A stretch of DNA of 64,000 bases from a virus (IMGVR_UViG_3300044695_006747:64001-128000), one strand, 5' to 3'; numbered from the stretch's first letter, positions 11,101 through 63,802 are shown. Numbers and translations are program-made. The notes: generated from the sequence alone by a model not told the origin.

Positions 11101-11206
11101 AGAATCTTTGAATAAAGATTTATCTGTAAGTTGTTTTTTGGCTGGCGGCGGATTCATAGGAGATACTGTGTACGATCAATACGGAATACAAACTTATGGT
11201 GAATAA
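2111..11206 (+). CDS. Giant (3031 aa) putative virion/tail adhesin with N-terminal VCBS/cadherin-like repeats and a Cys-rich C-terminus
   Basis: Uninterrupted 9.1-kb ORF. About four ~120-aa units follow the pattern G.l.WxF....FqYL..Ge.l.l.Y.i.i.D..G......tI.i.GkNe, which matches the VCBS-repeat consensus of large adhesins. The CDS is certain; the function is inferred. Confidence 0.65.
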   Translation: MSCNSCKLKNTHWLNDLIPPSGDQISFDPDLSSLIEPFDAQFSGIWRPLIINQKRFEEKLWIPFYLPATGLFVDRHKDYVGYDKFVKIENPEFKNWNIEGKLDVCVDVGLSHFKAFPTTGANSINYNVQQISNEKTNNFSIQTNNVIKNKLNDEKDNTETGSVNGVIPRIDPESNIVTIEVIDRGKNFGLKATNDELLNLFSASIGQNGLTWQFSPNQEFFKYLSTNEYLSLDYTVFTQKMFPGETVPRTGQYSIRISLFGRNDLAEPRIIADTGSSTINLIEKPDLYTTGYITVKDEDMSQEIYALVDDVFISGQTQELRSSRDDIKRMLSFGRGVLRDTTTRESTIEWSFYSGSEDFQYLKHGESLTLQYNIYIYDNLGKYSIYNKTITIIGKNESPGIGLYDILDTNGGIYDLNNPNSLQGTLSYSDVDFGDSVTPQVLSVNVNYSKSGLVSFHESFKNMLSVSGGGGRTGKINWVFQPDTEFLQYLGVGQIVELNYVIEITDTNGAKGYGLVTIIVIGKNEDIETDQTTISKTYTLEPPPQTKAIVDSETITVSDNNNNDLCNIIISNYKYEFENFNYSSLLSLSDDSQLNMELLGESMRHMLYFVPDYESGGGKTYYNKIGKYKWIFNSFPHHFRYLVNGEEISSLKLTYEVLLVDTYGSYKKIKFIFTINGYEAPETESTSPLITDNKYYDYIFGWYRYYDIEKLNDDRYIPGVDFYFGSLDTYVYGVDGISRLVVPEYKKFGIYPRPEMPRDSLPVDNVLFEDGYLYDYSAEIGLMHLGPTGSLLSPSGTLYQYITNPYERQKALHIINTSPYIDQITHTLTDIDAVDYTRDSYGRILPLLSGMSAKSFKDLSLNRFVSRKQEIFYRLAQKYGLSLILEESEKLKLKSKFVSDIGANVKINQKMFMEQDPEQTDKLCFIDTTINIGDIKYHRGLCKKDETDMPIVLDVNKMINSPIVIGPPPPHLLANYIDTIDDYFFHIIDYRLNEKLVNQQYVFNLKDKDYYYNEYNTPFIPPYFPSYPYRVPKGIDDLNLIFHGHGGIQDLSIVIAEESPLRDIEHFDLTYKEYDLESIEGPPSPIEISYYSNHGSRVYLGDIEIDYLRTPSRPKCEPFISYRSYGPRPRPQAIGYISETFYDFIDEDIKLFSYLPAITSYYLPSGNYYASLTEDQRKLFNIDLYNHPSGSTPLLKTHNVQELDPEYSSFNSTSIDTGAEILLLNVTHNGNISFDYPVSGLKSGYFCLEAVSSSGIFDLQLLPDENTISSADSLAHGSYALCLENIANHHTLAKITVSVSDPCDYWELKLSHLPFDTINRPLISKIDVSGTIGFFHPNSGWINDSQYYFKTPMAPYVPLPLDSKGDSEETSKQPIIKHHHYFWYDNEKMYNSEYLSGFNYMVNLSGLDSNIQKHIQNSRFIGVDKEDYYLMTSDFYKFSYNAEQSPIKKSIRMSYIDMDYSYGYPFNNFSFKPVDNNKIIVSSNFGKKRPLAYFDDPRLRQEYVELTNYETINIDSKLQNILLVISNITTLLNSINNQIRYWQQQLILVDIRNIDERNRLNNIINNLFTLISNIEENIQILRQKYSELSDKKDNFFTAQVVSASGNSDYLLLELDRPLIDEFLSGGYIRKAKNDENKSQSILLYRSNVSRNDFDLKINKWGNLFVVDTDFVGSLIDNSKLRAVAAWRQPSLFLNQNNNGSIETSGYYVPYSFKNLQTSDDGNPSYFPTQISVSDSGPLKISSVNTKAPSSIYVGPYTGQVHITTASKVIQGSFIKVADDNRVFFSFVDNDIGEDTHNRYIHNYNKNYMNLKSGDAIKFIIDNEDHPALNFIDPENEYYIIYYNEGRFIVGESTEQPLVYDENIDSSIADYGCFAIIEDPKFNHDSPCIGNLRVKYNNETVDNKFSKPALPIFADIEYEPIDENDFSKYIAHILYRYYDPPFSSNSRPSGLFPDYIAIYDKYMGNIHGVFYSYIEDPSIREPSGILRVNRNSFYDHNEDLKNNYYTYAYGTNVSRNNIYYQNNNTNEEIPLDSGSIQALYNVAPQTNNIVIDSVINSLNLQIETLQEDIVVLSSFLTDTSRSNDEKNSYRNNITNINQQINNIINTINQLDTSRDSFGLTIDDFNYKKIPLTYNLNIPEYLSGYDTHNPFLDMNIFSEDYRFKPTLLTNDQPAQSGYVYFEGLVENVHSSFYDKMQTPYDPHKMWIDIPDNADISLMTKFGKIFSSKVVYSILQKVDVECDSAVSTCAEMASKSYCDNPDLLEGAADLFGILKLPMELFNFEEITLPIDCDKINLCCLTLDSRDGSASIENYYRNFNFYPNIGPQDSWIYTTSNYDYAPLLVSSEAFNKKSCQTLEKDIKEICSKIFQNSERDVGCIGYRNNYATPYAYVPGAIDNYNLNCNNYFTNLSLQPPYKINSDYIIDNRYCQNGPPTAGKLSIKSQKMLLFKLKKIKLKDHIQIPLEKLTFISLDEERNMAMYSYTDGYPSQRYTIFPGYRYNSQLNGFGGSKLTYLPTIDTSLAVRYIFDSNLQMNYPTYDVGIITVAEGIANADYLSNNFYEYPTIKGVETDYFKQANQNNGAKIALKANHNNMIWRNEIMYRSFIPHNNKIHPPLSEYDINSYGNNNRNVIERVTIDCLHNTPISSLPGEESTISEEIRSTINNEKKKFISLGPMYKLTITDNDIDYTITVSLVSCEGSLCYEYDMDLGDYKTKALIDVSANEFDYDNYYSDQGCSISELEPNEPDPPSPDTNFNIQQIYSINPIKIGIFCNDPCPENWFYCEDDFVVYTEKQGEIEIFGNESPFPVTITKVTNRMVTIGRSRESCCEWNEIADCAPPDPSSGYNEIIGFRHSPHPDNYHTSSLTHNAYMYYPFRSKLAFPNQPKQSNRASFVSSSEKFRLGSSSEIISPGGTRIDNNLQEIDWSDTTDSAVRIMRPYLNIEIFSNCMNIMIPASIIRGFSQNILGVIESFFSSEEFANNIFTIDRNNNINRILPSMKIESLNKDLSVSCFLAGGGFIGDTVYDQYGIQTYGE
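2580..4150 (+). repeat. About four degenerate tandem VCBS-like protein repeats
   Basis: Repeat ends are ISLFGRND (~2890), ITIIGKNE (~3290), IIVIGKNE (~3675) and FTINGYE (~4135). The units carry internal WxF...F.YL..G/N and (T/S)(V/Y)xD.D motifs. Confidence 0.6.
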
Positions 11207-12638
11207 ATTTTCAATTATTAACAGAATACCAACTCTTGCTTCTCATCATACGCTTCAATTTCAAAAATTGGACTATCGAAGCTGCACCGATATGTGTGAT
11301 GAAAAAACATATATAGGTTATGTTATAAAAGGGAATGATGATTTAGCATATTGTACATATGATGGGTATCCTGGACTCAACAACGCCCCCGTCTTCTTTC
11401 TTCATGAAAAATATCCCATACATCCAAGTAGAAGCTCTTGGACAAACTGTGATATACAAGGATGGTATTTTTTTGGGATTTTTGGATACAAATATCCATC
11501 AAGCGCTTCAAATGCTTATTATTTTGACTCTACCACTAGAGATAGTATTTGTCTTTCTAATTTTGGTTTTACTCCAACATATACTATAGATAACATAGAA
11601 TTATTAGGCAATTATGTATGTAAGAAACCAGACAATTTTGATTGTAAACCAACAACAATACGACGATCAGAAATTATACAAGACTATATTATAAGATTTC
11701 CTTTTGTTGAGGGCACCACAACAGGCACATATGTAGATGTCTCAACTACCGATGAAGTATACGATTTTGAGGGAATGCCAATTGGTATAGGAGATATATA
11801 TACTAGAAACTTATATCCATATAACTATAAATTATCATGTAACTATACAATCAGTTTAGAAAAAGATATTTATGAGGTAGATATAAATTTGATATCCGCA
11901 GCATATTTTACCTATGAAGATAATATACCTGGTACAGTCCCAAATGGTAGAATAGCCATTCAGTCGGATATGTCTTTTAGTGCTTTATCTCATTGTGAAG
12001 CTTTGCCATCATGCAGAGAAGCGAATGCCTATAAAAAAGCTATGACAGGATTCAGAACCGCGAGTATGTGTAGATCAATACCAAATCCAGGATCGGTATG
12101 CTTCGATGCCACAAAAACTATTGAACAAAATGAAGAATGCGAAATCGTTGATTTTGCTGGAGGACCATCGAGAAATTGGCTAGAATCACAGAATTGTTGT
12201 GTTCATAAATATAACAATAGTCCTATAATGGATAATTTTGAAAATTATTGTAATAATAAAAATTATAGTAAGATTACATCACAACTTTCATGTTCTGAAA
12301 TTAATGAAGAACAAAGATCTTTAAAAATAGTACGCGAGGGTAGAGTTATAAGTTCTGTTTCTCCTTTTGTGGGATTGGCGGACAGTGCTGATAATCATCC
12401 ATTTATTATAACATCTTTTATATTCGAATTTCCTGCAAGCATTTGTGTAGCAAAACATAAAACAAATAATATAGATGTTTCTGTTGGATCGGCTGGTGTC
12501 CAGTGTGGTTGCAACTACTTATATCCTGAAGAAGAGAGTATAATTATTAGTCCAACACTTGTAAAAAGATCAATAAAAGTTCCTAAAATTATTACTATAG
12601 AAGTATATTATTGTAAAAAAACATACTCGGAGTGTTAA
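11196..12638 (+). CDS. Cys-rich hypothetical protein (480 aa), probably virion-associated
   Basis: Long ORF overlapping the giant-protein stop by 11 nt, with more than 20 Cys. No recognisable family. Confidence 0.55.
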   Translation: MVNKFSIINRIPTLASHHTLQFQKLDYRSCTDMCDEKTYIGYVIKGNDDLAYCTYDGYPGLNNAPVFFLHEKYPIHPSRSSWTNCDIQGWYFFGIFGYKYPSSASNAYYFDSTTRDSICLSNFGFTPTYTIDNIELLGNYVCKKPDNFDCKPTTIRRSEIIQDYIIRFPFVEGTTTGTYVDVSTTDEVYDFEGMPIGIGDIYTRNLYPYNYKLSCNYTISLEKDIYEVDINLISAAYFTYEDNIPGTVPNGRIAIQSDMSFSALSHCEALPSCREANAYKKAMTGFRTASMCRSIPNPGSVCFDATKTIEQNEECEIVDFAGGPSRNWLESQNCCVHKYNNSPIMDNFENYCNNKNYSKITSQLSCSEINEEQRSLKIVREGRVISSVSPFVGLADSADNHPFIITSFIFEFPASICVAKHKTNNIDVSVGSAGVQCGCNYLYPEEESIIISPTLVKRSIKVPKIITIEVYYCKKTYSEC

Positions 12639-52069: not shown

Positions 52070-52088
52070 TTATACTATGATATACACT
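52070..52088 (-). promoter_or_regulatory. Putative promoter motif AGTGTATATCATAGTATAA
   Basis: It straddles the end of the GT4 gene, immediately before the CAGGAGA RBS of the 179-aa gene. Confidence 0.4.
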
Positions 52089-53166
52089 GAATTAATTGTT
52101 TGGCCGCATGTTGCCAAGAATATTTTTGACCAGTTTTTACTCCATTTATATTAGTTCTAATATTATTTTTATATACATATCTCATATATTCTATTGTTTG
52201 ATCTATTTGTGTCTGGCCAATTTTAGCCCAATTACCGTTACCCAAGAACCATTTTCCATCAAACGCCGTTTCTGTATCAGTAATATCAATTAAAAATGCG
52301 TTATCTTTATCGCAAAATTCTGTATGTGCAGAGTAGTTTGTGGTGATAACCGGTTTATTCATTGACATGACTTCTAATAATTCTAGATTCCATCCTTCTG
52401 CTCGTGAAACAAATAGTCCGCAATCTGCTCGTGATATTAAATTAGCAACATCATTTTGAGTTTTAACCCTAGGAATAATTCTTATTTTTGATGCTAATGG
52501 TCCAGACGAATAAAAACTATGCCATTCGTCCATTTCTTTTTGAGAAAAACACGTTGGATCCGACGAGCCCATTAACCACAATTCGACATTATCATTGACA
52601 GAAAATGCTGAATTAAATAAATTCAATAAAATATCATATCCTTTTCTTACTTCCCATTTTCCTATCATGATAAAAACATAGGGGTCGTCGTCCTTTTTTG
52701 CGTTTTTATCTGATAATGTGTGATCAAAAATAGTACTATCTATACCTAAATGTACAATATTAATATTTTGAGTCATCCCATTATCTATTAATACATTTTT
52801 AGCCCATTGTGATGATACGATAAGTTCATCTGGAACTTTTAAATGTTTCTTCTCTAGATCATTAAACCTGTCTAACTCAAAAAATGGAAAACCAAAATAC
52901 TTACCAGTACCTACTCTTAGTTCCAAATCAAATTGATGCCATATCTTTACGCATGGGGATTTTGGGTCATACTCATTATTTATAATACTACCAAGCAACT
53001 CATCATCTTCTTGAGTATCTAGAGGAGGAATATATCCTGGTTGCACAGTAATCGGATGAACGTGAATATCGCAGCCGAGATGTTTAGCGTTTTTAGCTAA
53101 GTTCCATCCCACAACTCCATATCCCGTATAGCCCATAGGGCTCATTAAAATCATTTTATTGTTCAT
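52075..53166 (-). CDS. Glycosyltransferase family 4
   Basis: GYTGYG, GKWEVRKGYD, ADCGLFVSRAEGWNLELLEVMSMNKPVITTNYSAHTEF. Confidence 0.88.
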   Translation of the reverse strand: MNNKMILMSPMGYTGYGVVGWNLAKNAKHLGCDIHVHPITVQPGYIPPLDTQEDDELLGSIINNEYDPKSPCVKIWHQFDLELRVGTGKYFGFPFFELDRFNDLEKKHLKVPDELIVSSQWAKNVLIDNGMTQNINIVHLGIDSTIFDHTLSDKNAKKDDDPYVFIMIGKWEVRKGYDILLNLFNSAFSVNDNVELWLMGSSDPTCFSQKEMDEWHSFYSSGPLASKIRIIPRVKTQNDVANLISRADCGLFVSRAEGWNLELLEVMSMNKPVITTNYSAHTEFCDKDNAFLIDITDTETAFDGKWFLGNGNWAKIGQTQIDQTIEYMRYVYKNNIRTNINGVKTGQKYSWQHAAKQLIQCIS

Positions 53167-54266
53167 TTTTCATATACTCTGTTGTGTGTGTTATTTACTT
53201 GAATGAATGTTGTTTTTTTGCCAAAGTCTTTAATTTTTGTAGCTCCAATATATGTACATGCGCTTCTTAATCCTCCATAAATATCTTGAAGAATTTCGAC
53301 AGCTTTACCTTTATACGGAACGGTGACACATTTTCCTTCTGCTGTTCTGTATGTCGCCACCCCATCATGATGCTTGTCCATAGCATTTTTGCTACTCATG
53401 CCATAGTATTGTAATGATACTTTGCGTTTTTCAACATCAGGAGATTTTGGATCGAAAGGTTGCCATCCTCCGCTTCTCATTTTCCATTCATATTTCCATT
53501 CTCCTTCACATTCATCAGCACCAGCAAACATACTGCCAAGCATTACAAAATCACTATTACCACCAAAAGCTTTGCAAATATCTCCAACTACTTTGCACCC
53601 ACCATCAGAACAAATATGACCACCAAGACCATGAGCAGCGTCAGCACATTCCATTATGGCGCTCAGTTGTGGGTATCCTACGCCAGTTTTTAAACGAGTG
53701 GTACAAACACTACCCGACCCTATACCAACCTTGACTATATCAACTTTTCCATGAATGATTAGTTCTTCTGTCATCTCTGGAGTAACCACATTTCCGGCCA
53801 TTAAAATAATTTCAGGAAATAATTTACGAATATGAGCAGCAGTTTTTACAAATTGTTCTGTATATCCATTTGCAACATCAAGACAAATATTTGGAAAATA
53901 CCCATTACTACTTTTTATAGTGTTAAAAACTCTCTCCAGTTTTTCTATATCTTTTTTAGATGTTCCAGTAGAATACCATATGAGTTCTGTTGGTTCAATA
54001 AATAAATTTACTAAAACATCTTCATCATAATGTTTATGTAAACAGGTAATTGAGCCAAGAGGAGATAATGATCTACCCATAGAAGATGTTCCAACCGTGT
54101 CCATATTGGCAACCATGATAGGAACACAACTAAGTTCTCTAGGACTGTGAGCAAATCTAAAACTTCGTGCTAAATCAACTTCTGATCTACTTTTTAGTGT
54201 TGATCTTTTTGGACGAATAAGAACATCATCAAAATCTAGTTTAGTTTCATTAATTATTTTTTGCAT
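53163..54266 (-). CDS. guaC: GMP reductase
   Basis: [72 protein letters not shown]. Confidence 0.95.
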
Positions 54267-54267
54267 A

Positions 54268-55173
54268 TTATTTTCTTAATAAGTTATAGTTTTTTATAAA
54301 ATATTCTATTGTAGAATTTAATCCATCCTCTATTGAGGTAAAATTGAAATCTGGAAATAATTTATTTATTGTTGTATCATGACTTGATCTAATCATCATA
54401 CCTTCTGGTTTGGATTTGTCAAAAACAATATTACCATGAAAACCCATAATTTTTGCTATATTAGTAACGATTTCTTCTATAGAATAACAAATGCCTGTGG
54501 ATATGATTATTTGTTCCGGAATTTCATTATCGAGCATTATTTTTAAAAGATCAGCAACGTCCTGAGCAAAAACAAATTCTCTTTGTGCTTTTCCAGAACC
54601 CCACACCTCCAGATTTGTATTATTTAATTTTGCTAAATAGGTTTTATGAATTAATCCCGGTATCACATGGCTATCATTTAGATTATAATTATCATTTAAT
54701 CCATACATATTGCTTGGAATAATGCACGATGTCTTTATGTTGAATTGTGTTTTTAAGCATTTCGATCCTATACTTAGTATCCTTTTTCCGTGAGCATATC
54801 CATAATTGGATGGGTGTGGTTCTCCTTGTAGAAGATATTCATTTATTAGTGGATTATTTGCATCTTTGGGAAAGATACATCCAGATAGCATAAATATAGA
54901 ATTATTGAGACTATATTTTTGACATGCTTTTAAAATATTAAGATTAATTTGTAAATTATCTATTAAAAAATCATATGGGTACTGCGAATTAGCACTTACC
55001 CCACCCACTTTTGCTGCTAAATGCACAAGTTTTGATACGTTATTATTTTCTATAAAATGACATAGTTGATCAAAATTATAAAGATCGAGTTGAGATCTTG
55101 TTGGTTTTATTCCAAAATCTATACAATGACCCAACAATCCATTTCCACCAGTAACAAGTATATTACTGCTCAT
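54268..55173 (-). CDS. fcl: GDP-L-fucose synthase family reductase/epimerase (Fcl/WcaG/ColC-like)
   Basis: ILVTGGNGLLG, HLAAKVGG, SGCIFPK, YAHGK, PSNMYG.NDNY...SHVIPGLI, VWGSGKAQREF, KPEGM. Confidence 0.9.
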   Translation of the reverse strand: MSSNILVTGGNGLLGHCIDFGIKPTRSQLDLYNFDQLCHFIENNNVSKLVHLAAKVGGVSANSQYPYDFLIDNLQINLNILKACQKYSLNNSIFMLSGCIFPKDANNPLINEYLLQGEPHPSNYGYAHGKRILSIGSKCLKTQFNIKTSCIIPSNMYGLNDNYNLNDSHVIPGLIHKTYLAKLNNTNLEVWGSGKAQREFVFAQDVADLLKIMLDNEIPEQIIISTGICYSIEEIVTNIAKIMGFHGNIVFDKSKPEGMMIRSSHDTTINKLFPDFNFTSIEDGLNSTIEYFIKNYNLLRK

Positions 55174-56024
55174 ACAAACTCCAGATTTTCATTCATTAGT
55201 CCCCAAAAATTATCATTAGCATTAAAAAATTGTGGCATTATTCCATATGGATTCATTATTGATCTATAGTCTTTTCCAGCATCATGATGATCTAGATGAA
55301 AAAATATTATTTGATTGTCCTCAAGATCTCCTCCAAATTTATATTTTTGTGATAATCTAATATGTAATTCTATATCCTGCCATCCCCAGTATGGCAGTTC
55401 TTCCCACCAACAGGTGCTATCCTGACCTATTTTTCTAGACATTAAAAGAGACATGGCTCTACCGTCAAAATTTGTAATATTAATTTTATCATGACGAAAT
55501 GATGATAAATTACTATTAGAAATAAATTGATCTGTATCTAAAAAAGATTGAGCATCGTTATAAGATGGTCTGGGTAGGTGGTATCTTGATCCCCAAAAAA
55601 ATGTATCGTGATTATTTTGTATAGATAAATTTTGAGTAAAATCTACTAGCCTAGCAAAATTTTCGTAGGTTATGAAACAATCAGAGTCCCAAAAAATAAC
55701 ATATTCACCAGAACTTCTTTGAAATGAAACATTATAGGCATGGGCTATAGAATAGTCTGACTGTTTGCTATATTTTTTTCCAATATTCTGTGGAACATAA
55801 ACACATTTAAAATTTGTATGTCTATTTTCTAGAATAGAATCAACTATTTTAGTATCGCTACCCCAGTCACATAATATAACTTCAATTTTAGGATTATTTA
55901 ATCTGTGTAAATTATCGCAAAGTTTATTTAGACTTATTTTTAATCTTTGATCAACTCCACCTCGCCCATTAACATCACATCCATACTTATCATTTTTGCC
56001 TTGTAATAAAATAGATAATAACAT
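55170..56024 (-). CDS. GT-A (family 2-like) glycosyltransferase
   Basis: IEVILCDWGS, AYNVSF...GEYVIFWDSD (DxD), WGWQDIEL. Confidence 0.75.
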   Translation of the reverse strand: MLLSILLQGKNDKYGCDVNGRGGVDQRLKISLNKLCDNLHRLNNPKIEVILCDWGSDTKIVDSILENRHTNFKCVYVPQNIGKKYSKQSDYSIAHAYNVSFQRSSGEYVIFWDSDCFITYENFARLVDFTQNLSIQNNHDTFFWGSRYHLPRPSYNDAQSFLDTDQFISNSNLSSFRHDKINITNFDGRAMSLLMSRKIGQDSTCWWEELPYWGWQDIELHIRLSQKYKFGGDLEDNQIIFFHLDHHDAGKDYRSIMNPYGIMPQFFNANDNFWGLMNENLEFV

Positions 56025-56025
56025 A

Positions 56026-57051
56026 TCATTGTGTCCTTAAAAATTCATACCATTTTAATGTTGATAAAATACCATTTTCTGTATTTATAAAATTTTTAGT
56101 GCCAAACTCTTTTTCATATTTCTCTATACTAATACTAACTTTATTTGGGTTTCCAACCATAGTATTATTTTTATCTCCATACGAGATTGTACTATTTGTA
56201 TGTTTGGCGATAGTTTCTGCTATTTCTTTTATAGACGTTTGTTTTTTGCCCGTAAGATTATATACAGTCGAGGATCCTTTGCAGATAATATCTAAAATCA
56301 TTTGAACCATATCGCTAATATAGCATAGTGTTCTGGTTGCGGATCCATCGTCGATAAGATTTATTTGATTTGATTCTAGAGCTTTGTTAATTAGATCATT
56401 AATTACTCTAGAATCATTTAATTTGCATCCAGGTCCATAGGTTGTGCTGATTCTTCCTATTTTTATATTTGCTAAATTGGACATACTTAAGCATATTGTT
56501 TCGCCACATCTTTTTGATTCTATATAGCATGATCTAGGGTGGTCTGTTGATGTTGTACCTATGTCTTGTTCCGATATTGCTTCTTTATTCAATCCGCTAT
56601 ATATCTCGCTGCTACTGCAATAAAAGAACGTGCCACCTTTATTTAGAAGTCTAAAAAGATTCATTGTGACAGAAGTATTAAGTTTTATAGTTGATAATTT
56701 ATTATCTAAAAACTTATTGGGTTGAGCATATCCAGCTGAGTGAATAATAATGTCCGCCCCATTCAGATTTTCTGCAAAATAATTTTCTATAAAATTTATT
56801 AGAGGATCCTCTGTTAAATCTCCAACTATTGTTGTAGAACTTTCAAAAAGATATTTAAGATAATCCGGAACACTGCTATTTATGCAACATATAGTGTTGA
56901 TAGCGTATGTTTTTTTAAGTTGATTTAATAGTGCTAACAAATTAAGTCCAATTAGACCAGAAGCTCCTGTTATGAGTATGGTTTTATTATTGAGGAATTG
57001 ATATTTTGTAATATCTATATTTTCGTAGGATTCTGATATTAATTTATGCAT
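56026..57051 (-). CDS. NAD-dependent nucleotide-sugar epimerase/dehydratase (UDP-glucuronate decarboxylase-like extended SDR)
   Basis: ILITGASGLIG, HSAGYAQP, SSSEIYSG, YIESK (YxxxK), RISTTYGPG. Confidence 0.85.
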   Translation of the reverse strand: MHKLISESYENIDITKYQFLNNKTILITGASGLIGLNLLALLNQLKKTYAINTICCINSSVPDYLKYLFESSTTIVGDLTEDPLINFIENYFAENLNGADIIIHSAGYAQPNKFLDNKLSTIKLNTSVTMNLFRLLNKGGTFFYCSSSEIYSGLNKEAISEQDIGTTSTDHPRSCYIESKRCGETICLSMSNLANIKIGRISTTYGPGCKLNDSRVINDLINKALESNQINLIDDGSATRTLCYISDMVQMILDIICKGSSTVYNLTGKKQTSIKEIAETIAKHTNSTISYGDKNNTMVGNPNKVSISIEKYEKEFGTKNFINTENGILSTLKWYEFLRTQ

Positions 57052-57914
57052 TCTATGATCTTTTTTTGTATTCCTGATATATCTAAATTAAGTTCTTTGT
57101 CGTGTTGTTCTTTAGATCCATAATTATACAAAAACTTTCTTGGTATACCTATATTAGTTATATTATATAATCTATTATCTAGAGTATTTGTGACAATATA
57201 GTTTGTGGTTCCTTTATAGAAAGGTTCACATATAATAATTTTTGAATTGAAGTGTTCAAGTAAAACTTTTTCATCAAATGGCCATATTGTATTATAATAC
57301 AGTAGTGTTACATCTAAATTTTGTGTTGCTTCAAAAACTTGTTGTAGCATAGGTCCGTAGCATATAATTGTAGCTTTTGATCCTGTTTTAACTATATTAG
57401 CTTTTCCATATTCGATATCAAAATCTAAAGAGTGTTCGGTTTCGCTAAGTCTAAAATATTTTGGATTATTATTTGTATATGTTGCTATCAATAATTTGTC
57501 TAATTCTTTAGAATTCCCTGGAATCATGATGCTCATATCTTCGATTGTTAACATCAAAGATATATCTCCTGGACAATGATGAGTACAACCAAGTCCAGCA
57601 TAATCATATGATGATCCAACACTAATAAAATTTCCATTTAATTTTTGATAGCCAAAATCTATTTTTATTTGTTCAAAAGCTCTTTCTACAAGAAATGGAG
57701 CAATTGTATGTACGAAAGGAATAAGTTTATTTTTAGATAAACCAGCAGCTAAACTTACTGTGCTTTGTTCTAGTATTCCTATATTATATACCCTGTCTTG
57801 TAATACTGTAAGTTCTTCATTAAAAGCAAAAACACCTATATCTCCTAGAAGTAAGACAGTATCTTGGTCTCTATAAAGAATATTTTTTAATGTTTTAGCA
57901 AATTGTTTTCTCAT
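57039..57914 (-). CDS. Transketolase-like C-terminal subunit (pyrimidine-binding + C domain)
   Basis: MRKQFA...LLLGDIG, NIGILEQ...AAGLS, RAFEQIK, GCTHH. The ATG at 57914 overlaps the FkbM stop. Confidence 0.9.
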   Translation of the reverse strand: MRKQFAKTLKNILYRDQDTVLLLGDIGVFAFNEELTVLQDRVYNIGILEQSTVSLAAGLSKNKLIPFVHTIAPFLVERAFEQIKIDFGYQKLNGNFISVGSSYDYAGLGCTHHCPGDISLMLTIEDMSIMIPGNSKELDKLLIATYTNNNPKYFRLSETEHSLDFDIEYGKANIVKTGSKATIICYGPMLQQVFEATQNLDVTLLYYNTIWPFDEKVLLEHFNSKIIICEPFYKGTTNYIVTNTLDNRLYNITNIGIPRKFLYNYGSKEQHDKELNLDISGIQKKIIECIN

Positions 57915-58603
57915 ATTTTTTTTACAAAAATAGCATCTCCGTGAAAATCTTGCCATAAATTTATTTTTTCTACAAGTTCAAAATTATAACTTGTCAATAG
58001 ATCAATAATATCTTGTAGTTTTTTTTGTCCAATATATAATTCTTTAGTTGACCATTCTGTCATTATTGCCTTAACGTTGTCTAAAATATTTTTTGCTCCA
58101 TCTAATATTTCCCATTCTGATCCTTGAGTATCTATTAAGAGTATATCTGGCTGGACTTTGTTATGAGTACAATATTGGTACAATGTTGTTACATCTACAT
58201 CTATTTCTTTTTCTAGGATTGTTTGACTTAACATTGAACTATGATCACTAGAATTATATCTTAGAGATTGAATAGTTTTATGCCATAGACTTCTTTGTGA
58301 CTGATCAGAAATATTTGGATCAAAACATTTTATAAATTTTGTTGTTCCTATATGATTTGATAAAGCAATATTATTGCATATTATTTTTTCATTTTTATAT
58401 AATACATTTAATTTTGAAAAACATTCTGGATCTGGTTCAAACGCATGTACTTCACAGTTATTACCAAAAAGTTCTTTTATCTCATCTATATCAACACCGT
58501 CATAGGCTCCAATTTCAAATATTATATTACAGTTGTCAAAAATGTATGATTTTATTTTTGCCATATTTGATGAGCATATCGGTTTTTCGTGTTTATTGTT
58601 CAT
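57911..58603 (-). CDS. FkbM-family methyltransferase
   Basis: IFEIGAYDG, VHAFEPDP, NIALS, ILLIDTQGSEWEILDGA, EWS. Confidence 0.9.
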   Translation of the reverse strand: MNNKHEKPICSSNMAKIKSYIFDNCNIIFEIGAYDGVDIDEIKELFGNNCEVHAFEPDPECFSKLNVLYKNEKIICNNIALSNHIGTTKFIKCFDPNISDQSQRSLWHKTIQSLRYNSSDHSSMLSQTILEKEIDVDVTTLYQYCTHNKVQPDILLIDTQGSEWEILDGAKNILDNVKAIMTEWSTKELYIGQKKLQDIIDLLTSYNFELVEKINLWQDFHGDAIFVKKI

Positions 58604-58606
58604 GAT

Positions 58607-59341
58607 TTATAATCTTTCTATTGTAAAAAGTAATTCTTTATCTTTTGGTATTTTATGATGCCACTCAGGATTATTTTCCATTATTGGAATACCATAGCCT
58701 TTGATTGTATTGCATATGGCAATATTTGGTTTTGGATTATTCTTATTATTACAAATAAAAAGCTGTAATTGATTATGATCATGACCATTTATATTGGAGG
58801 TATTCCAGTTAAAAGAAACAAATTTGTCCTCTATATTATCTAATTTAACGGCCCTATCACCAGAACGATTGTAGTCCAGAAAACAGTATAAGTTATCTAG
58901 GTTATGATGAGATGCCAATAATGCGGATTCCCATATTGTTCCTTCATTACACTCTCCGTCTCCAATAACAACATATATTTTACCTTCTTCTTTTTTAATT
59001 TTTTTTGCTAGAGCCATGCCAACAGCAATTGGAAATCCATGTCCTAAAGAACCAGTTGATGCTTCTATAACAGAAATATTAGAACAAGGATGACCTCCAA
59101 AGTGGGAGTCAAATGAACAAAAGTTATTCAATAAAACTGGATCTATTTTTTTGAAATGTTCTAATATAACATATAATCCAAGGGCGGCGTGTCCTTTCGA
59201 TAATATAAATCTATCTTTTGGCTGTATAATAGAATAGATATTATATAGTATATCTAAAATAGATAAAGAACTAGGAATGTGTCCTTCTTTATTAATTTGA
59301 GCTAGTTCTAATATTCTATTGATAAGAAATTTTTTATTCAT
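58607..59341 (-). CDS. Transketolase-like N-terminal (ThDP-binding) subunit
   Basis: GHIPSSLS, DRFILSKGHA, STGSLGHG, GDGECNEGTIWES, DGH, TIKGYG. Confidence 0.92.
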   Translation of the reverse strand: MNKKFLINRILELAQINKEGHIPSSLSILDILYNIYSIIQPKDRFILSKGHAALGLYVILEHFKKIDPVLLNNFCSFDSHFGGHPCSNISVIEASTGSLGHGFPIAVGMALAKKIKKEEGKIYVVIGDGECNEGTIWESALLASHHNLDNLYCFLDYNRSGDRAVKLDNIEDKFVSFNWNTSNINGHDHNQLQLFICNNKNNPKPNIAICNTIKGYGIPIMENNPEWHHKIPKDKELLFTIERL

Positions 59342-60492
59342 TATAGGCTATCATTAACTATATTACAAATTTTATTAATATCGTTCTCAGATAAAGAAGG
59401 ATGATTTGGGAGATACATACCATATTTGTGAACTAAATCTCCAAAGGCATATTGTTTTTGTCCATATAATTTGGTATAGAATGGTTGTTTCGAAATACTA
59501 CCGCATACAAGAGGACGACATTCAATATTATTTGCTATCAAATTTTTAACCATATCGTTTCTATTTGGATGTATAATAGGATAAGCAAAATTACTTACAA
59601 AATTTTGAGATTTAATTTGCCAAAAATTATTTACTATCATACTGTCATACTGTAAAAAATTTTGATATCTTTTTTTATTTCTACTATCAATAGTTTTTAA
59701 TTGTTGTATCCCCAAAAAAGACTGTATTTCTGTTGCTCTAACATTAAAGCCAGGATAATAGAATGTATATAAACTATCGAAACTATCAATATTATGTTTA
59801 TTTCTTAAGAGTTGAGCAGTTTCATCCGATAAGTCTCTATCCCATCCATGTGATCTAATGGATAGTAATATTTCATATAGCTCAAAATCATCTGTGGATA
59901 TAATTCCACCTTCAATCGTAGAAAAATGGTGTCCAAAATATGTCGAAAAAGTTGACATTAATCCAAAGCATCCAGTCTTAGTGTCATTGTACAATGATCC
60001 AACACTCTCACAAGAGTCTTCAAGCAAAATAACATCATATTTATTACATAATTGTTGTATTTCATCAAAACTATTTGGAAATCCAAGAATATTAGCAACC
60101 ATTAAACACGAAGGTTTTTCTTGCTCTAGTAATCTTTCAAGATGATTTGTATCAATTCCTAAATTATTTTTGTCACTATCACATAGTAATATTTCAAAAT
60201 CAAACTGTATTGCTGGACTTATAGTTGTTGACCAGCCCAAACAAGGTAGCACAATTTTTTTATTTTTAAGCCTACCAGATAATTTAAGAGCATATAACAT
60301 TAATAAATTAGCTGATGATCCTGAGTTTACAAACACAGAGTATTTTCTACCTAACCACTCTGACCATTTATTTTCGAATTGTTTTGTTAATTTATCTTTT
60401 GTTAATCTGGGATATGTAGACAACCAAGCGCATAGATTATCTATGTCTTTGTTTGTTATTGTATCATAAGCTAGTTTAATTGGTATTGACAT
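59341..60492 (-). CDS. colD: DegT-fold PLP enzyme of the ColD type (GDP-4-keto-6-deoxymannose 3-dehydratase)
   Basis: FVNSGSSANL, LLEDSCES, STYFGHHFSTIEGG (His where DegT aminotransferases have the PLP Lys), RSHGWDR, PGFNVR. No E1/DdhC Fe-S Cys insert. Confidence 0.75.
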   Translation of the reverse strand: MSIPIKLAYDTITNKDIDNLCAWLSTYPRLTKDKLTKQFENKWSEWLGRKYSVFVNSGSSANLLMLYALKLSGRLKNKKIVLPCLGWSTTISPAIQFDFEILLCDSDKNNLGIDTNHLERLLEQEKPSCLMVANILGFPNSFDEIQQLCNKYDVILLEDSCESVGSLYNDTKTGCFGLMSTFSTYFGHHFSTIEGGIISTDDFELYEILLSIRSHGWDRDLSDETAQLLRNKHNIDSFDSLYTFYYPGFNVRATEIQSFLGIQQLKTIDSRNKKRYQNFLQYDSMIVNNFWQIKSQNFVSNFAYPIIHPNRNDMVKNLIANNIECRPLVCGSISKQPFYTKLYGQKQYAFGDLVHKYGMYLPNHPSLSENDINKICNIVNDSL

Positions 60493-60495
60493 ATT

Positions 60496-61368
60496 TTATC
60501 TCAATGGTAATAGACTTGTTTTATGTTCTGCTAACAATGATCCATATTTTACAGTGCTGGCTATATTTTCATTTCCTATAAAATCTAATAAAATATTAGC
60601 TATTATTTCTTCTGGAGGCCCGAACAGATTATTATCAAATTCTTTTATCATTCTTATGATAGCATTCGAATATTTGTTCATTATATGAGACCCACCGTAT
60701 GCAATTTTATCATTATGAAGTTCTGGTATATATATTTTATTATTGTCCAACATATCCAATTTAATAACTCTTCTGCATTCTTCGATATCAAAGCGCATAT
60801 CTGGCCTCAATCTAAATACCCAGTCATATTTTTTATTATTTTTATATTCGCTCTGTAATTTAAGTAAATTTGCTTTATATATCAAATAAAACATCTTACA
60901 CGATCCTATAACTCCGTTGTGTATTCCTCTTCCATCCCAATTATATTTACATTTTGTTAAAATATTCCATTGAAGAGGAGAAAACTCAGATGCATAAAAA
61001 GCATAATCGTTAACTTCTATTTCTTTAGCTTCAAAATTTTGTATAATATCTTCGACATTAATATCTATATTGTGACTACCTGGTTCTGATAATCCGTGAG
61101 CACTAGACCAGCAATTTGCACTATTTTGTTTATTCCATGTGGCAATAAAAACATCAATATCTCCATATTGACTTATCAAATTTTTAAATTCTAAATAATT
61201 TTTGTGTAAACGTTTATAGTCTCTAATATGGCCAGATATACAGAAGGCTATAGATAGCTTATCGTCTGTTTTATATTTTATGTCTAGATGTTCAGATATA
61301 ATATTTTCAGCTTCAATTAGTTGTTTATAGCGTTTTCTAAAAAATATTTTTTGAATAGTTTTCCACAT
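60496..61368 (-). CDS. Glycan-cluster protein, putative glycosyltransferase-like
   Basis: IAFCISGHIR...DVFIATW and YDWVFRLRPD, a pattern I recall from viral glycan clusters. Confidence 0.5.
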   Translation of the reverse strand: MWKTIQKIFFRKRYKQLIEAENIISEHLDIKYKTDDKLSIAFCISGHIRDYKRLHKNYLEFKNLISQYGDIDVFIATWNKQNSANCWSSAHGLSEPGSHNIDINVEDIIQNFEAKEIEVNDYAFYASEFSPLQWNILTKCKYNWDGRGIHNGVIGSCKMFYLIYKANLLKLQSEYKNNKKYDWVFRLRPDMRFDIEECRRVIKLDMLDNNKIYIPELHNDKIAYGGSHIMNKYSNAIIRMIKEFDNNLFGPPEEIIANILLDFIGNENIASTVKYGSLLAEHKTSLLPLR

Positions 61369-61378
61369 AATTATAATA

Positions 61379-62740
61379 TTATTGATTAATTTTTAAGAAA
61401 ATTTCTAAATCTTCTGGTGTTCCTAAACCATACATGTTTTTAATATGATAAGTTCTAATCTTTTTATTATCCTGTATAGCTTCATTAAATACGGGACAAA
61501 CATAGAATTCATTATTTATACGAATATTTTTCTCTATCATTTGTTGTGCGTAGCGAACGAAATCTTTTCCTTTATTCCAATAATATATGCCAACAGTAGC
61601 TATATTAGATATTGGTTTTTTTTCTGCTACTTCGTTTACAAGATTATGTTCATCTAGTTTAACGAAAGACCATTTAGGGTGTGTTGATTCAAAAGTTAAT
61701 ATGCAACCATCCAGACTAGAATTTTCCATAGTATACATAAAATCATTACTATTCCAATCTATATATTGATCAGAATTAGCTATTAGTAGAGGATCATTTG
61801 TATTTATTAAATCTTTTGTCAGTAATACTGTGCAGGCAGCGCCTTCTGTGATGTGATCAACACAGATAATTTTGCAGTTGGGCGCAATAAGATTGAGTAA
61901 GTATTTTAAATTAAAGTCTTCATAATGTTTTTGTTGAACAATAAAAATATAGTTAGCATCTATATTGATATTATCAACAATTCTTTTTATCATTGGTTCG
62001 CCATTAACATCTATTAGTGGCTTTGGAAAAGTATATCCAGCTTTCTCAAACCTAGAAGCTGCACCAGCCATTGGTATAACTATATTTAGTTTATCGTTAG
62101 ACCATTTATTAGATATGGCTATTTTATTCATAGTATTAACTTTATTTATTAGTGAACTATTTATATCTTTAGTTCTTTTGACTTTTATAACAAAAGCTCC
62201 ACTATTCTCTGCCGCCTGTATTCCTAATGGCGAATCTTCTACAATAATAGTTTCTTTTGGGCAAACTCTTGCAGATATCATACATTTAAGATAAATTTCT
62301 GATGATGGTTTTGCAAGCATTACATCCTCATTCGAGTAGAATATATCAATATACTTTATATATCCTGTATAATACAGTGCAGATTTTACGGTTTCTCTTA
62401 TACTATTTGACGCTACTGCTATTATTGCTCCAGATTCCTTTAGTTGTTTGAGCGTCTGAATAATATTGGGATCTCCCTGTAAATTTTCTATATATTTTGA
62501 TGTTTTTTTCTGTTTATTTAACCATATAGTATTATAGGAATTTTCTGGTAGTCCTTTATTTTTAGTCAGTAGTTTTAGTTTATCGAATGTTTTCATTCCA
62601 TCATATAAGGATATGTGTTCTTCATATGATATGATAAAAGATTTATCAAATTCACTTATTGCTTCATTAAGAACATTGAAATGCATGTCTTTCATATCTA
62701 CAAGCACTCCATCTAGATCAAAAATAATTAGTTTAATCAT
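61379..62740 (-). CDS. Fusion of a HAD phosphatase and a sugar-phosphate nucleotidyltransferase
   Basis: N-domain FDLDGVL...VASNS...AKPSSE...IVEDS. C-domain IVIPMAGAASRF...PKPLIDV, EGAACTVL, IANSDQ, AEKKPIS, NNEFYV, GLGTPED. Confidence 0.9.
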   Translation of the reverse strand: MIKLIIFDLDGVLVDMKDMHFNVLNEAISEFDKSFIISYEEHISLYDGMKTFDKLKLLTKNKGLPENSYNTIWLNKQKKTSKYIENLQGDPNIIQTLKQLKESGAIIAVASNSIRETVKSALYYTGYIKYIDIFYSNEDVMLAKPSSEIYLKCMISARVCPKETIIVEDSPLGIQAAENSGAFVIKVKRTKDINSSLINKVNTMNKIAISNKWSNDKLNIVIPMAGAASRFEKAGYTFPKPLIDVNGEPMIKRIVDNINIDANYIFIVQQKHYEDFNLKYLLNLIAPNCKIICVDHITEGAACTVLLTKDLINTNDPLLIANSDQYIDWNSNDFMYTMENSSLDGCILTFESTHPKWSFVKLDEHNLVNEVAEKKPISNIATVGIYYWNKGKDFVRYAQQMIEKNIRINNEFYVCPVFNEAIQDNKKIRTYHIKNMYGLGTPEDLEIFLKINQ

Positions 62741-63188
62741 ATGTATATTCTTTTATATAGTCACTACATATTCCATATGAATTTAATAATTCTTGTTTAG
62801 AATAAAAAGATATCTCTGGTAAAACACATACTGTCTTCTTGTTTAGTGACGATCCAGGATATGCCCAGCCTATGCTTTTGGAAGTTAATGTATATTTATC
62901 TTTTTCATGCCAAAAAAAATGTAGATCAGGATATTCATTTTGAATCTGTAATAAATAAAATAAACAATCAGAATTTTTACAATGTATCCATATATTGGGA
63001 TTGGTTAATAATTCTGAAGGCATATCGTATTTAGGCGAATCATGTCCCAACATTAGTTTATTATTTACAAACCATAAATCTATTTCAACATTATATTTTA
63101 GATTTAATGCATTATTGATATAGTTTGGATGATTTTCCTTACTAATATTTTTACCAGTAAGATTTCCTCGATGTGATATATATATCAT
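62733..63188 (-). CDS. Truncated GDPD/PLC-like phosphodiesterase
   Basis: ISHRGN...EN...VEIDLW...LGHD...WIHCKN...GICSDY. Confidence 0.75.
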   Translation of the reverse strand: MIYISHRGNLTGKNISKENHPNYINNALNLKYNVEIDLWFVNNKLMLGHDSPKYDMPSELLTNPNIWIHCKNSDCLFYLLQIQNEYPDLHFFWHEKDKYTLTSKSIGWAYPGSSLNKKTVCVLPEISFYSKQELLNSYGICSDYIKEYTYD

Positions 63189-63802
63189 ATTATTTTTGTA
63201 AAATATATTTTAGCTTGATTACCATATTGATCTATGGGATAAACATTAGTAATAGCAAATTGATTCAATTTAAGGAAATCTGTAGTCTCTGATAGAGAGT
63301 TTTGATTAAGGTATATTGCTTCGGGAATGATCGAAGCAATAAGACTTCCTTCGTGGACTAAGCTAATATATTTACCTAAACCATGCAAGATATCTAAATC
63401 GCTACCGTTAGCGTCTATATTCAGATAGTCTATACAGTTAATTTTTTCTTCAAGACTATCTATAAAAATATCTAGTCTAGTTACAGAAACTTTTGTGTGT
63501 TGTGTAACGATAAAATCGTTTCTTCCTGGCCATACATTCATACAATTATCAGAAAAATTCAATAAAGAACTTAAATTGTGATTATTTGTACCAGCGATAT
63601 TAAATTTTGATATAGCTTCATAATTAGATACTGCTTTTTGTATAGTATAGCAATTTTTAAGTTGATTATTTTTTATACGCTCATTTAGAGTTTCAATGAG
63701 TTGTTCTACTGGTTCAAAAAAATAAATCCTATCATTTTCTTCAAATATTTTATTACTAATATAGTTGGATTCTAAGCCAGTTCCAATATCAAATATAATC
63801 AT
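63185..63802 (-). CDS. FkbM-family methyltransferase
   Basis: IFDIG, YFFEPV, KAVSN, TRLD, IDYLNIDANGSDLDILHG. Confidence 0.8.
   Translation of the reverse strand: MIIFDIGTGLESNYISNKIFEENDRIYFFEPVEQLIETLNERIKNNQLKNCYTIQKAVSNYEAISKFNIAGTNNHNLSSLLNFSDNCMNVWPGRNDFIVTQHTKVSVTRLDIFIDSLEEKINCIDYLNIDANGSDLDILHGLGKYISLVHEGSLIASIIPEAIYLNQNSLSETTDFLKLNQFAITNVYPIDQYGNQAKIYFTKII

Follow-up and report, generated by a model that had tools for sequence, protein, structure and literature searches.

The branched-chain sugar yersiniose A of Yersinia pseudotuberculosis owes its branch to YerE, a single-chain enzyme of the decarboxylase/acetolactate-synthase superfamily of thiamine diphosphate (ThDP) enzymes, which takes an acetyl unit from pyruvate and works on a CDP-sugar; ErwE and MyGE are YerE-like. 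The route consists of a 4,6-dehydratase, a 3-dehydratase, the ThDP enzyme, and a reductase, with YerE branching CDP-4-keto-3,6-dideoxyglucose and YerF then reducing the product (PMC9306805). Transketolases have entered similar proposals through the miharamycin and amipurimycin clusters, whose split-gene transketolases would use a keto sugar as acceptor for a hydroxyacetyl unit; 13 further split-transketolase candidates have been listed from Streptomyces, and none of all these enzymes has been characterized in vitro (PMC12247030). A UXS-like decarboxylase beside a two-subunit, E1-like ThDP enzyme has been proposed for eurekanate (PMC10338323) and paulomycose (PMC4753412). The present analysis concerns a split transketolase-like enzyme encoded between positions 56026 and 59341 of the window, the whole stretch of 64,000 nucleotides that makes up bases 64001-128000 of the 186,823-bp viral record IMGVR_UViG_3300044695_006747. 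Its subunits, TK-N and TK-C, are assigned from their sequences to a large, biochemically uncharacterized, transketolase-derived sugar-tailoring family, of which this pair is a phage-borne member. Literature searches on phage transketolases, on those of O-antigen and capsule clusters, and on split-gene transketolases turned up nothing relevant, and no paper on this family in phages or surface-glycan clusters was found. The claim of the sequence-only reading that such a sugar is not described from a phage is true of the literature searched, but the gene cassette itself is common.

That reading had described separate transketolase halves, a coupled FkbM methyltransferase between them, and an extended short-chain dehydrogenase/reductase (SDR) directly after, and coordinates, Pfam families, and junctions agree with it; only the start of TK-C was corrected. 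All four genes lie on the minus strand. TK-N (58607..59341, 244 aa) is the ThDP/Mg-binding half (PF00456, Transketolase_N, 8.6e-30), and TK-C (57039..57914, probable start, 291 aa) is the pyrimidine-binding and C-terminal half (Transket_pyr PF02779, 9.7e-20; Transketolase_C PF02780, 2.1e-06). The FkbM methyltransferase (57911..58603, 230 aa) matches PF05050 (Methyltransf_21/FkbM, 1e-20) and TIGR01444 (2.6e-19) above the family cut-offs (75 bits against 22.7 and 70.1 against 37.7, respectively), and the extended SDR (56026..57051, 341 aa; Epimerase, 5.3e-35) is UXS-like, its best solved match being human UDP-glucuronate decarboxylase (2.3e-27). The stop codon of the preceding ColD-type dehydratase gene shares one base with the TK-N start (TAATG), a 3-nt spacer separates the TK-N stop from the FkbM start, and TK-C runs into the SDR gene for 13 nt. 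Although the longest TK-C open reading frame (ORF) begins at 57956, relatives all begin at the methionine of the motif MRKQF, corresponding to an in-frame ATG at 57914 that the FkbM stop overlaps (ATGA). For this reason 57914 is most likely the true start, which would make the coupling of FkbM and TK-C a classic ATGA overlap.

The best solved matches of the phage halves belong to the split transketolase of Carboxydothermus hydrogenoformans (6YAK for TK-N, 1.1e-39; 6YAJ for TK-C, 9.1e-19, with DXS at 4.1e-18). With this enzyme and with E. coli TktA the phage pair shares the fold, the domain order, the GDG...N motif, the activating glutamate, and the catalytic histidines. The concatenated halves of 57 cassette members were aligned to TktA with MAFFT, the residue numbers being verified on the K-12 sequence, and the cofactor and catalytic set (H26, H66, H100, D155, N185, H261, R358, D381, E411, and H473) proved intact in every cassette member. 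The ThDP/Mg motif GDG(X)n-N and the activating Glu (D155, N185, E411) are accordingly present in the window and in 57/57 members, and the window pair has all five catalytic histidines (H26, H66, H100, H261, H473). Of the residues forming the sugar-phosphate/2-OH site of a canonical transketolase (EC 2.2.1.1; R358, S385, H461, D469, R520), the window enzyme keeps R358 alone, the others being replaced (S385F, H461G, D469L, and R520E), and it thus lacks the canonical site. These replacements recur across the 57 cassette members, with Gly at position 461 in 53/57, Leu at 469 in 42/57, and Glu or Asp at 520 in 42/57; position 385 aligns to an aromatic residue or a gap, varying by MAFFT run, and counting directly from D381 gives Phe for the window. 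In contrast to the F, G, L, and E of the phage family, true transketolases keep S385, H461, D469, and R520. Seven full-length transketolases, six of them from cassette-carrying bacterial genomes, retain all these residues, three basal split transketolases do so too except for Ala385 in one, and the HMMER alignment of Carboxydothermus 6YAJ has Ser, His, Asp, and Arg where phage TK-C differs. An exhaustive search of 1.84 billion representatives with TK-C gave 188 clusters (50% identity) at E<=1e-30, and among the 119 full-length representatives scored for these residues, Gly461 occurs in 115/119, Leu469 in 79/119, and Glu520 in 62/119, with H473 in 119/119 and E411 in 118/119.

The pattern of kept and lost residues suggests what kind of reaction is catalyzed. 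Because H100 and H473, the ligands of the donor C1-OH in transketolases, are retained, a ketol (hydroxyacetyl) unit would be favored over an acetyl unit. The loss of D469, the Asp that reads the acceptor 2-OH, together with an R520 turned acidic, would favor an acceptor that neither is alpha-hydroxylated nor bears a terminal phosphate. It is speculation that R358, at the extreme N-terminus of TK-C, contacts the diphosphate of a nucleotide sugar. Positions 385, 469, and 520 are also hot spots in the laboratory evolution of E. coli transketolase toward non-phosphorylated or aromatic aldehydes.

Comparison with the other ThDP enzymes places the pair in the transketolase superfamily. E1_dh matches at 6.8e-06 against 8.6e-30 for Transketolase_N, and models of the pyruvate dehydrogenase E1 beta subunit match at 1.4e-05 or worse, so the pair is not of the E1 alpha/beta type represented by AviB1/B2. 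The everninomicin enzymes EvdS6 with EvdU5/EvdS3 and the related pairs AviB1/AviB2 and Pau11/Pau12 resemble the phage locus in setting a UXS-like SDR beside a two-subunit ThDP enzyme, for a proposed C4 acyl-branched sugar; however, enzymes of the EvdU5/EvdS3 type are pyruvate-dehydrogenase E1 alpha/beta-like and take acetyl from pyruvate, whereas the phage pair is transketolase-type. The single-chain TPP_enzyme_N/M/C architecture of YerE is likewise absent, the window giving only a weak TPP_enzyme_C match (1.2e-04) over the ThDP motif. The parallel with YerE drawn by the sequence-only reading therefore stands as regards the enzyme logic, which is that of yersiniose, but it is one of analogy and not of membership, since YerE belongs to a different ThDP superfamily; the phage enzyme has two subunits, a hydroxyacetyl unit would be expected from it, and its neighbors point to GDP-sugars. 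The miharamycin and amipurimycin enzymes, which can be likened to the phage pair by description only, share its superfamily and the proposed chemistry, but they belong to actinomycete antibiotic clusters and act on a nucleoside-sugar core, unlike the phage glycan cassette.

The phylogeny agrees with the active site. In a maximum-likelihood tree (quick IQ-TREE, LG+G4, SH-aLRT), among whose rows there was no experimentally characterized housekeeping split transketolase, the window groups with three other phage sequences (SH-aLRT 95) and is nested in clades of 32 and 50 cassette enzymes (SH-aLRT 100 each), which long branches (0.71 + 0.71) split from the seven full-length transketolases. A grouping with housekeeping transketolases would have spoken against the sequence-only reading, and none was seen. 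The window fits this glycan-cluster clade of split transketolase-like enzymes in having an N half of ~245 aa, a C half of ~290 aa, Gly461, a non-basic residue 520, and an extended SDR next to it. Five cassette-carrying genomes also encode a full-length transketolase (436-515 bits).

The alternative that the phage simply uses a normal split transketolase as an auxiliary metabolic gene to boost the host pentose-phosphate pathway in infection would be in keeping with the domain matches, which are to transketolase families, NCBIfam transketolase models being the top matches but lying far below their cut-off (180 against 488 bits). However, H461, D469, R520, and S385 are all replaced, the clade is separate from the housekeeping enzymes, and the genes are translationally coupled to, and embedded among, glycan genes. 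In addition, a transaldolase has no match anywhere in the 186,823-bp phage, and the earlier remark that no pentose-phosphate genes stand alongside holds as far as tested. This explanation was rejected on active-site residues, tree, and gene context and is regarded as extremely improbable; because its sugar-phosphate site is dismantled, its clade separate, and its context one of glycan genes, the phage TK-N/TK-C pair is classified here as not a housekeeping transketolase.

The family is not confined to phages. A scan of 185,579 species genomes gave 576 relatives, of which 80 loci were kept, and in nearly all of these TK-N is followed by TK-C, with an extended SDR next in most. The order TK-N/TK-C/UXS-like SDR was found in 36 bacterial and archaeal loci, often inside clusters containing Wzm/Wzt, GDP-mannose 4,6-dehydratase (GMD), Fcl, GT10, or GT11, and these cellular loci are cell-surface polysaccharide loci. 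The clade nearest the phage includes Patescibacteria, Bacteroidota, Omnitrophota, Pelagibacter, SAR116, an actinobacterium, and others, with a typical order of GMD, Fcl, Wzm, Wzt, TK-N, TK-C, UXS-like SDR, (Fcl-like), a 312-aa methyltransferase-like protein, and GT10 or GT11. Its cellular carriers include the Actinobacteria bacterium IMCC26103, a complete genome (L046). A second clade, with the signature Y-G-D-D, is accompanied by a Methyltransf_24 protein, an RmlC-like epimerase, a GHMP kinase, and a nucleotidyltransferase; Desulfospira joergensenii DSM 10085 and Bradyrhizobium yuanmingense (loci L061 and L063) belong to it. The GMD, Fcl, and fucosyltransferase families point to GDP-6-deoxyhexose chemistry. 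The conserved ~312-aa protein comes after the SDR in 35 loci from bacteria and 35 from viruses (e.g., L014:13830-14768 and L002:9897-10823, viral and cellular loci being numbered with the prefix L); it has no significant Pfam family (Methyltransf_25 at 0.18), a class-I S-adenosylmethionine motif, EFGCGPAYH, is seen by eye, and it appears to be a cassette-specific, unnamed methyltransferase family.

In viruses, a profile scan of IMG/VR found the cassette on at least 113 contigs, and 80 loci were kept, 76 of which have the TK-N/TK-C/SDR trio. The gene after the SDR is the 312-aa methyltransferase-like protein in 35 of the viral loci (median gap 21 nt) and a ColD-type dehydratase in 32 (median gap 15 nt), the HH motif being kept in 30 of those 32; GMD lies within 3 kb of the cassette in 32 viral loci. 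The link to a ColD product suggested by the sequence-only reading gains support from related phages, where the trio is followed directly by the ColD-type dehydratase and then by GMD. Three phage loci, L110, L112, and L144, are syntenic with the window island from ColD to the sigma factor, the L110 TK-C having 81% identity. In L110 (IMGVR_UViG_3300045125_000172), the closest relative of the island, most genes align in 2-4 tblastn pieces in different frames, which looks like sequencing or assembly indel errors and not real pseudogenes. In five other viral contigs (L006-L010), the window TK-C aligns over only ~155-165 residues, the pyrimidine-binding part; their TK-C is apparently shorter, radical-SAM genes lie nearby in L006, L008, and L010, and these contigs look like a separate, "minimal" branch of the family.

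The position between the two halves is a recurrent methyltransferase slot, so the FkbM gene noticed there at the outset is indeed present but is not peculiar to the window phage. One or more genes lie between TK-N and TK-C in 23/76 phage loci (e.g., L135:8441-9001). An FkbM gene occupies the slot in the window, L111/L118, and L149, a Methyltransf_24/TylF-like gene in 10 loci (e.g., L112:8453-9004), a Methyltransf_25-type enzyme in L145 (8261-9004), a B12-binding radical-SAM enzyme in L173 (7667-9001), and a 281-aa family without assignment in four loci, alongside a few other unidentified ORFs. Most identified genes in the slot are methyl-transfer genes from unrelated families. Even among the syntenic phages, the place of the window FkbM is taken in L110 and L112 by a Methyltransf_24/TylF-like gene of 183-186 aa, at precisely the same position, and in L144 the halves abut; the window FkbM is one case of non-homologous replacement. 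Since unrelated methyl-transfer genes replace one another in this slot, the pattern argues that methylation is functionally tied to the product of the transketolase.

The best reading of these data, by analogy, is a GDP-sugar counterpart of the YerE/YerF pathway that would give a C2-branched, methylated (3,)6-deoxysugar. A fusion of a HAD (beta-phosphoglucomutase-like) domain and a sugar-1-phosphate nucleotidyltransferase (61379..62740, minus strand, 453 aa; HAD_2 1.2e-28, NTP_transferase 2.8e-09; PDB matches to beta-phosphoglucomutase, 2.6e-15, and NDP-sugar pyrophosphorylase, 5.2e-19), presumed to be the sugar-phosphate activation step, would supply a GDP-hexose. The phage GMD (387 bits), encoded at genome positions 10583-11569, outside the window and ~110 kb from the glycan island, would convert it to GDP-4-keto-6-deoxymannose. 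The 3-OH would then be removed by the DegT-fold enzyme at 59341..60492 (minus strand, 383 aa; PDB ColD/WbdK, 7.1e-65), yielding GDP-4-keto-3,6-dideoxymannose. This enzyme is assigned as a ColD-type, pyridoxal/pyridoxamine phosphate-dependent 3-dehydratase from its alignment to ColD, which covers residues 30-365 and sets GHHFST against SHHIAT, with His replacing the Schiff-base Lys. With hydroxypyruvate, a ketose, or a similar compound as donor, the transketolase-like enzyme would attach a two-carbon ketol (hydroxyacetyl) unit at the C4 carbonyl to form a tertiary alcohol, and the UXS-like SDR and/or a GDP-L-fucose synthase/ColC-like 3,5-epimerase-4-reductase (54268..55173, minus strand, 301 aa; NCBIfam GDPFucSynFcl 5.8e-63, below cut-off; PDB GDP-L-fucose synthase 5.1e-55) would reduce the remaining carbonyl. 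The FkbM enzymes would O-methylate the sugar, and glycosyltransferases of the GT2 and GT4 families would transfer it.

The pathway logic is that of yersiniose, and in related phages GMD, ColD, the transketolase pair, and the SDR stand in one run. The modules of L135 and L139 consist of an RmlC-like gene, TK-N, (a methyltransferase), TK-C, the SDR, ColD, and GMD, flanked by glycosyltransferases and without an Fcl-like gene. In modules of this type no electrophile is made other than the C4 ketone that GMD or ColD generates, and the only reductase is the SDR associated with the transketolase; they are thus the strongest argument that the pair acts on a C4 ketone, as YerE does before YerF. The branched-sugar interpretation is supported in part, by the clade, the lost H461, D469, and R520, and the gene context, whereas which acceptor and donor are used, in what order the steps run, what the SDR does, and which sugar results are inferred.

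Several observations weigh against this route. Acceptance of a ketone, a keto-sugar, or an NDP-sugar in vitro has not been demonstrated for any transketolase-type enzyme (PMC12247030). GMD, ColD, and Fcl/ColC alone suffice for GDP-colitose, so that the cassette could belong to the pathway of another sugar. The SDR has a (T/S)-S-E motif of the decarboxylase/dehydratase type, for which a plain side-chain ketoreductase would have no need. Most bacterial cassettes are without ColD, which leaves the 3-deoxy step outside the conserved core, and 24/80 phage loci, many of them on short contigs, have no GMD, ColD, or Fcl within 9 kb. On balance, confidence is evenly divided as to whether TK-N and TK-C form a two-subunit, ThDP-dependent carboligase of the transketolase superfamily that serves nucleotide-sugar tailoring, and not the pentose-phosphate pathway, by the route set out above. 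The more specific proposal of a natural transketolase whose acceptor is the C4 ketone of a GDP-4-keto-(3,)6-(di)deoxyhexose, giving a previously undescribed, hydroxyacetyl-branched, eight-carbon sugar with a tertiary alcohol, is put forward tentatively and with some doubt.

A rival reading divides the island into two pathways, in which GMD, ColD, and the Fcl-like reductase would make GDP-colitose or GDP-fucose, while the SDR would act as a uronate decarboxylase yielding an NDP-4-keto-pentose that is branched at C4 by the transketolase and methylated. The phage encodes GMD, a ColD-type enzyme with the His substitution, and an Fcl/ColC-like reductase, as does the GDP-colitose pathway, which, in contrast to the phage island, has no ThDP enzyme, UXS-like SDR, or methyltransferases. 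Such a division would parallel the proposal for eurekanate, where the UXS-like EvdS6 releases UDP-4-keto-xylose, the proposed acceptor for a two-subunit ThDP enzyme (PMC10338323). The human UXS as best solved match of the SDR and the retention of T/S-S-E with YxxxK (the family motifs TGxxGxxG, (T/S)-S-E, and YxxxK are kept in 33/33 or 32/33 members) are in its favor, as is the fact that the transketolase/SDR pair is the invariant core and ColD is optional. These motifs, however, do not separate decarboxylases from 4,6-dehydratases of the GMD type, which have T/S-S-E as well, or from related reductases. Moreover, a UDP-glucose/GDP-mannose 6-dehydrogenase, the uronate-forming enzyme, was not found in the phage, and one lies nearby in only 2/89 related loci; dozens of phage loci have GMD and ColD directly beside the trio, and the compact L135/L139 modules have no other candidate 4-reductase for the ColD product. 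Two separate pathways are therefore considered unlikely. The UXS-like SDR was also considered as the 4,6-dehydratase of the pathway and was rejected, as the phage has a genuine GMD and many phage loci have one adjoining the trio.

The altered acceptor site would also suit a chain extension, in which the ketol unit is added to a sugar-nucleotide aldehyde (e.g., at C6) to give a linear C8 ulose that the SDR then reduces: aldehydes are the natural acceptors of transketolases, and the loss of D469 and of phosphate ligands fits a non-phosphorylated acceptor without a free alpha-hydroxyl. Yet no conserved partner gene known to make a sugar aldehyde accompanies the cassette, and the carbonyl-making enzymes that consistently co-occur with it (GMD, ColD, and the UXS-like SDR) all give C4 ketones, which makes an aldehyde acceptor quite improbable. 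The HAD-nucleotidyltransferase raises the further idea that the carbon skeleton is built before activation, the transketolase-like enzyme making or interconverting a free or unusually phosphorylated ketose that the HAD-mutase/nucleotidyltransferase would then activate. This fusion lies near the cassette with a 151-aa companion in the window, L006, L016, L034, L110, and L147, a transaldolase/fructose-6-phosphate aldolase (FSA) gene stands directly before TK-N in L002/L111, and R358, a phosphate ligand, is retained. Against this, the HAD-nucleotidyltransferase occurs in only 4/80 phage loci and the transaldolase in only 2/80, three of the four phosphate ligands are lost with R520 acidic, and the window phage is without a transaldolase; assembly before activation is rated as very improbable. 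The aldolase-family gene of L002 (L002:5893-6573, on the same contig as L111, from a 185-kb related phage; 226 aa, 1.9e-37) may be a source of the ketose donor, or else an auxiliary gene without connection to the cassette, and the same family is found near the cassette in L074 and L082. Addition to a C4 ketone of a GDP-4-keto sugar, in the manner of YerE, thus remains the best reading.

The cassette belongs to one tightly packed array of 13 minus-strand genes running from ~63802 down to 52075. The first island gene wholly within the window is a second FkbM-family methyltransferase (63185..63802, 205 aa; PF05050, 6.6e-09), with a homologue at the same position in the syntenic phage L110; a 243-aa ORF upstream of it runs off the window end. 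It is followed by the 151-aa protein (62733..63188), which has no Pfam match at E<=0.05 and whose homologues adjoin HAD/NTP-transferase genes in L006, L016, and L110. By eye its start, ISHRGN...VEIDLW...LGHD, recalls the HRG, E-x-D, and HD of glycerophosphodiester phosphodiesterases, for whose fold the protein is too short. Between the HAD-nucleotidyltransferase and the ColD-type gene lies a 290-aa protein (60496..61368) with no Pfam family, whose nearest Atlas clusters are viral and bacterial and without a name. After the SDR comes the GT2-family glycosyltransferase (55170..56024, 284 aa; PF10111 7.2e-13, PF00535 1.5e-07), homologues of which come after the SDR or a methyltransferase in 17 phage loci; it was considered as a divergent form of the conserved 312-aa methyltransferase-like protein, which is absent from the window phage, and this was rejected for want of any similarity. 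An RmlC-like epimerase is also absent from the phage by a profile built from related loci. Next to the Fcl-like reductase stands a full-length GMP reductase, GuaC (53163..54266, 367 aa; NCBIfam PRK05096, 1.5e-140, above cut-off), between that gene and the GT4-family glycosyltransferase that ends the island (52075..53166, 363 aa; PF13692 1.4e-14, PF00534 5e-14), with junctions of 1 nt and 4 nt, respectively; it takes the same position in L110, L112, and L144 and may have to do with GDP-sugar turnover or with nucleotide pools alone.

The viral record has direct terminal repeats and was judged complete. These repeats and the presence of polymerase, helicase, ribonucleotide reductase, and tail-fiber-like genes establish it as a genuine large phage; the window (G+C ~30%) carries a split family-A-type DNA polymerase, a DnaB-like helicase, a UvsX-like recombinase, a ribonucleotide reductase, and a tail-fiber-like protein. 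No close relative was found among GenBank phages by Megablast, and the GenBank tblastn matches were all below 40% identity, mostly to bacterial-looking records. The phage GMD gene is flanked by a sigma-70 region-2-like gene and an ERCC4 nuclease gene, unlike the many related phages in which GMD abuts the transketolase cassette.

For annotation, the signature of G461, L469, and E520 with intact catalytic histidines offers a simple aid against recording such proteins as pentose-phosphate transketolases. If the proposed chemistry holds, it would be a new natural route to branched-chain sugars and would provide the first transketolase shown to form tertiary alcohols, an open goal named in the biocatalysis literature (PMC12247030). 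For phage biology, the locus would represent a complete phage-borne deoxysugar tailoring pathway, whose target could be the host envelope, the virion, or another structure. The methyl-transfer genes lying between the subunit genes would, if the C4-ketone proposal is true, be required, co-translated methylation partners of the enzyme. The family is large, occurring in many phyla of bacteria and archaea and on at least 113 viral contigs, so that its product is probably a surface sugar common among aquatic microbes; under the same proposal, a hydroxyacetyl-branched sugar would be on display in an entire class of aquatic phages and ultra-small bacteria.

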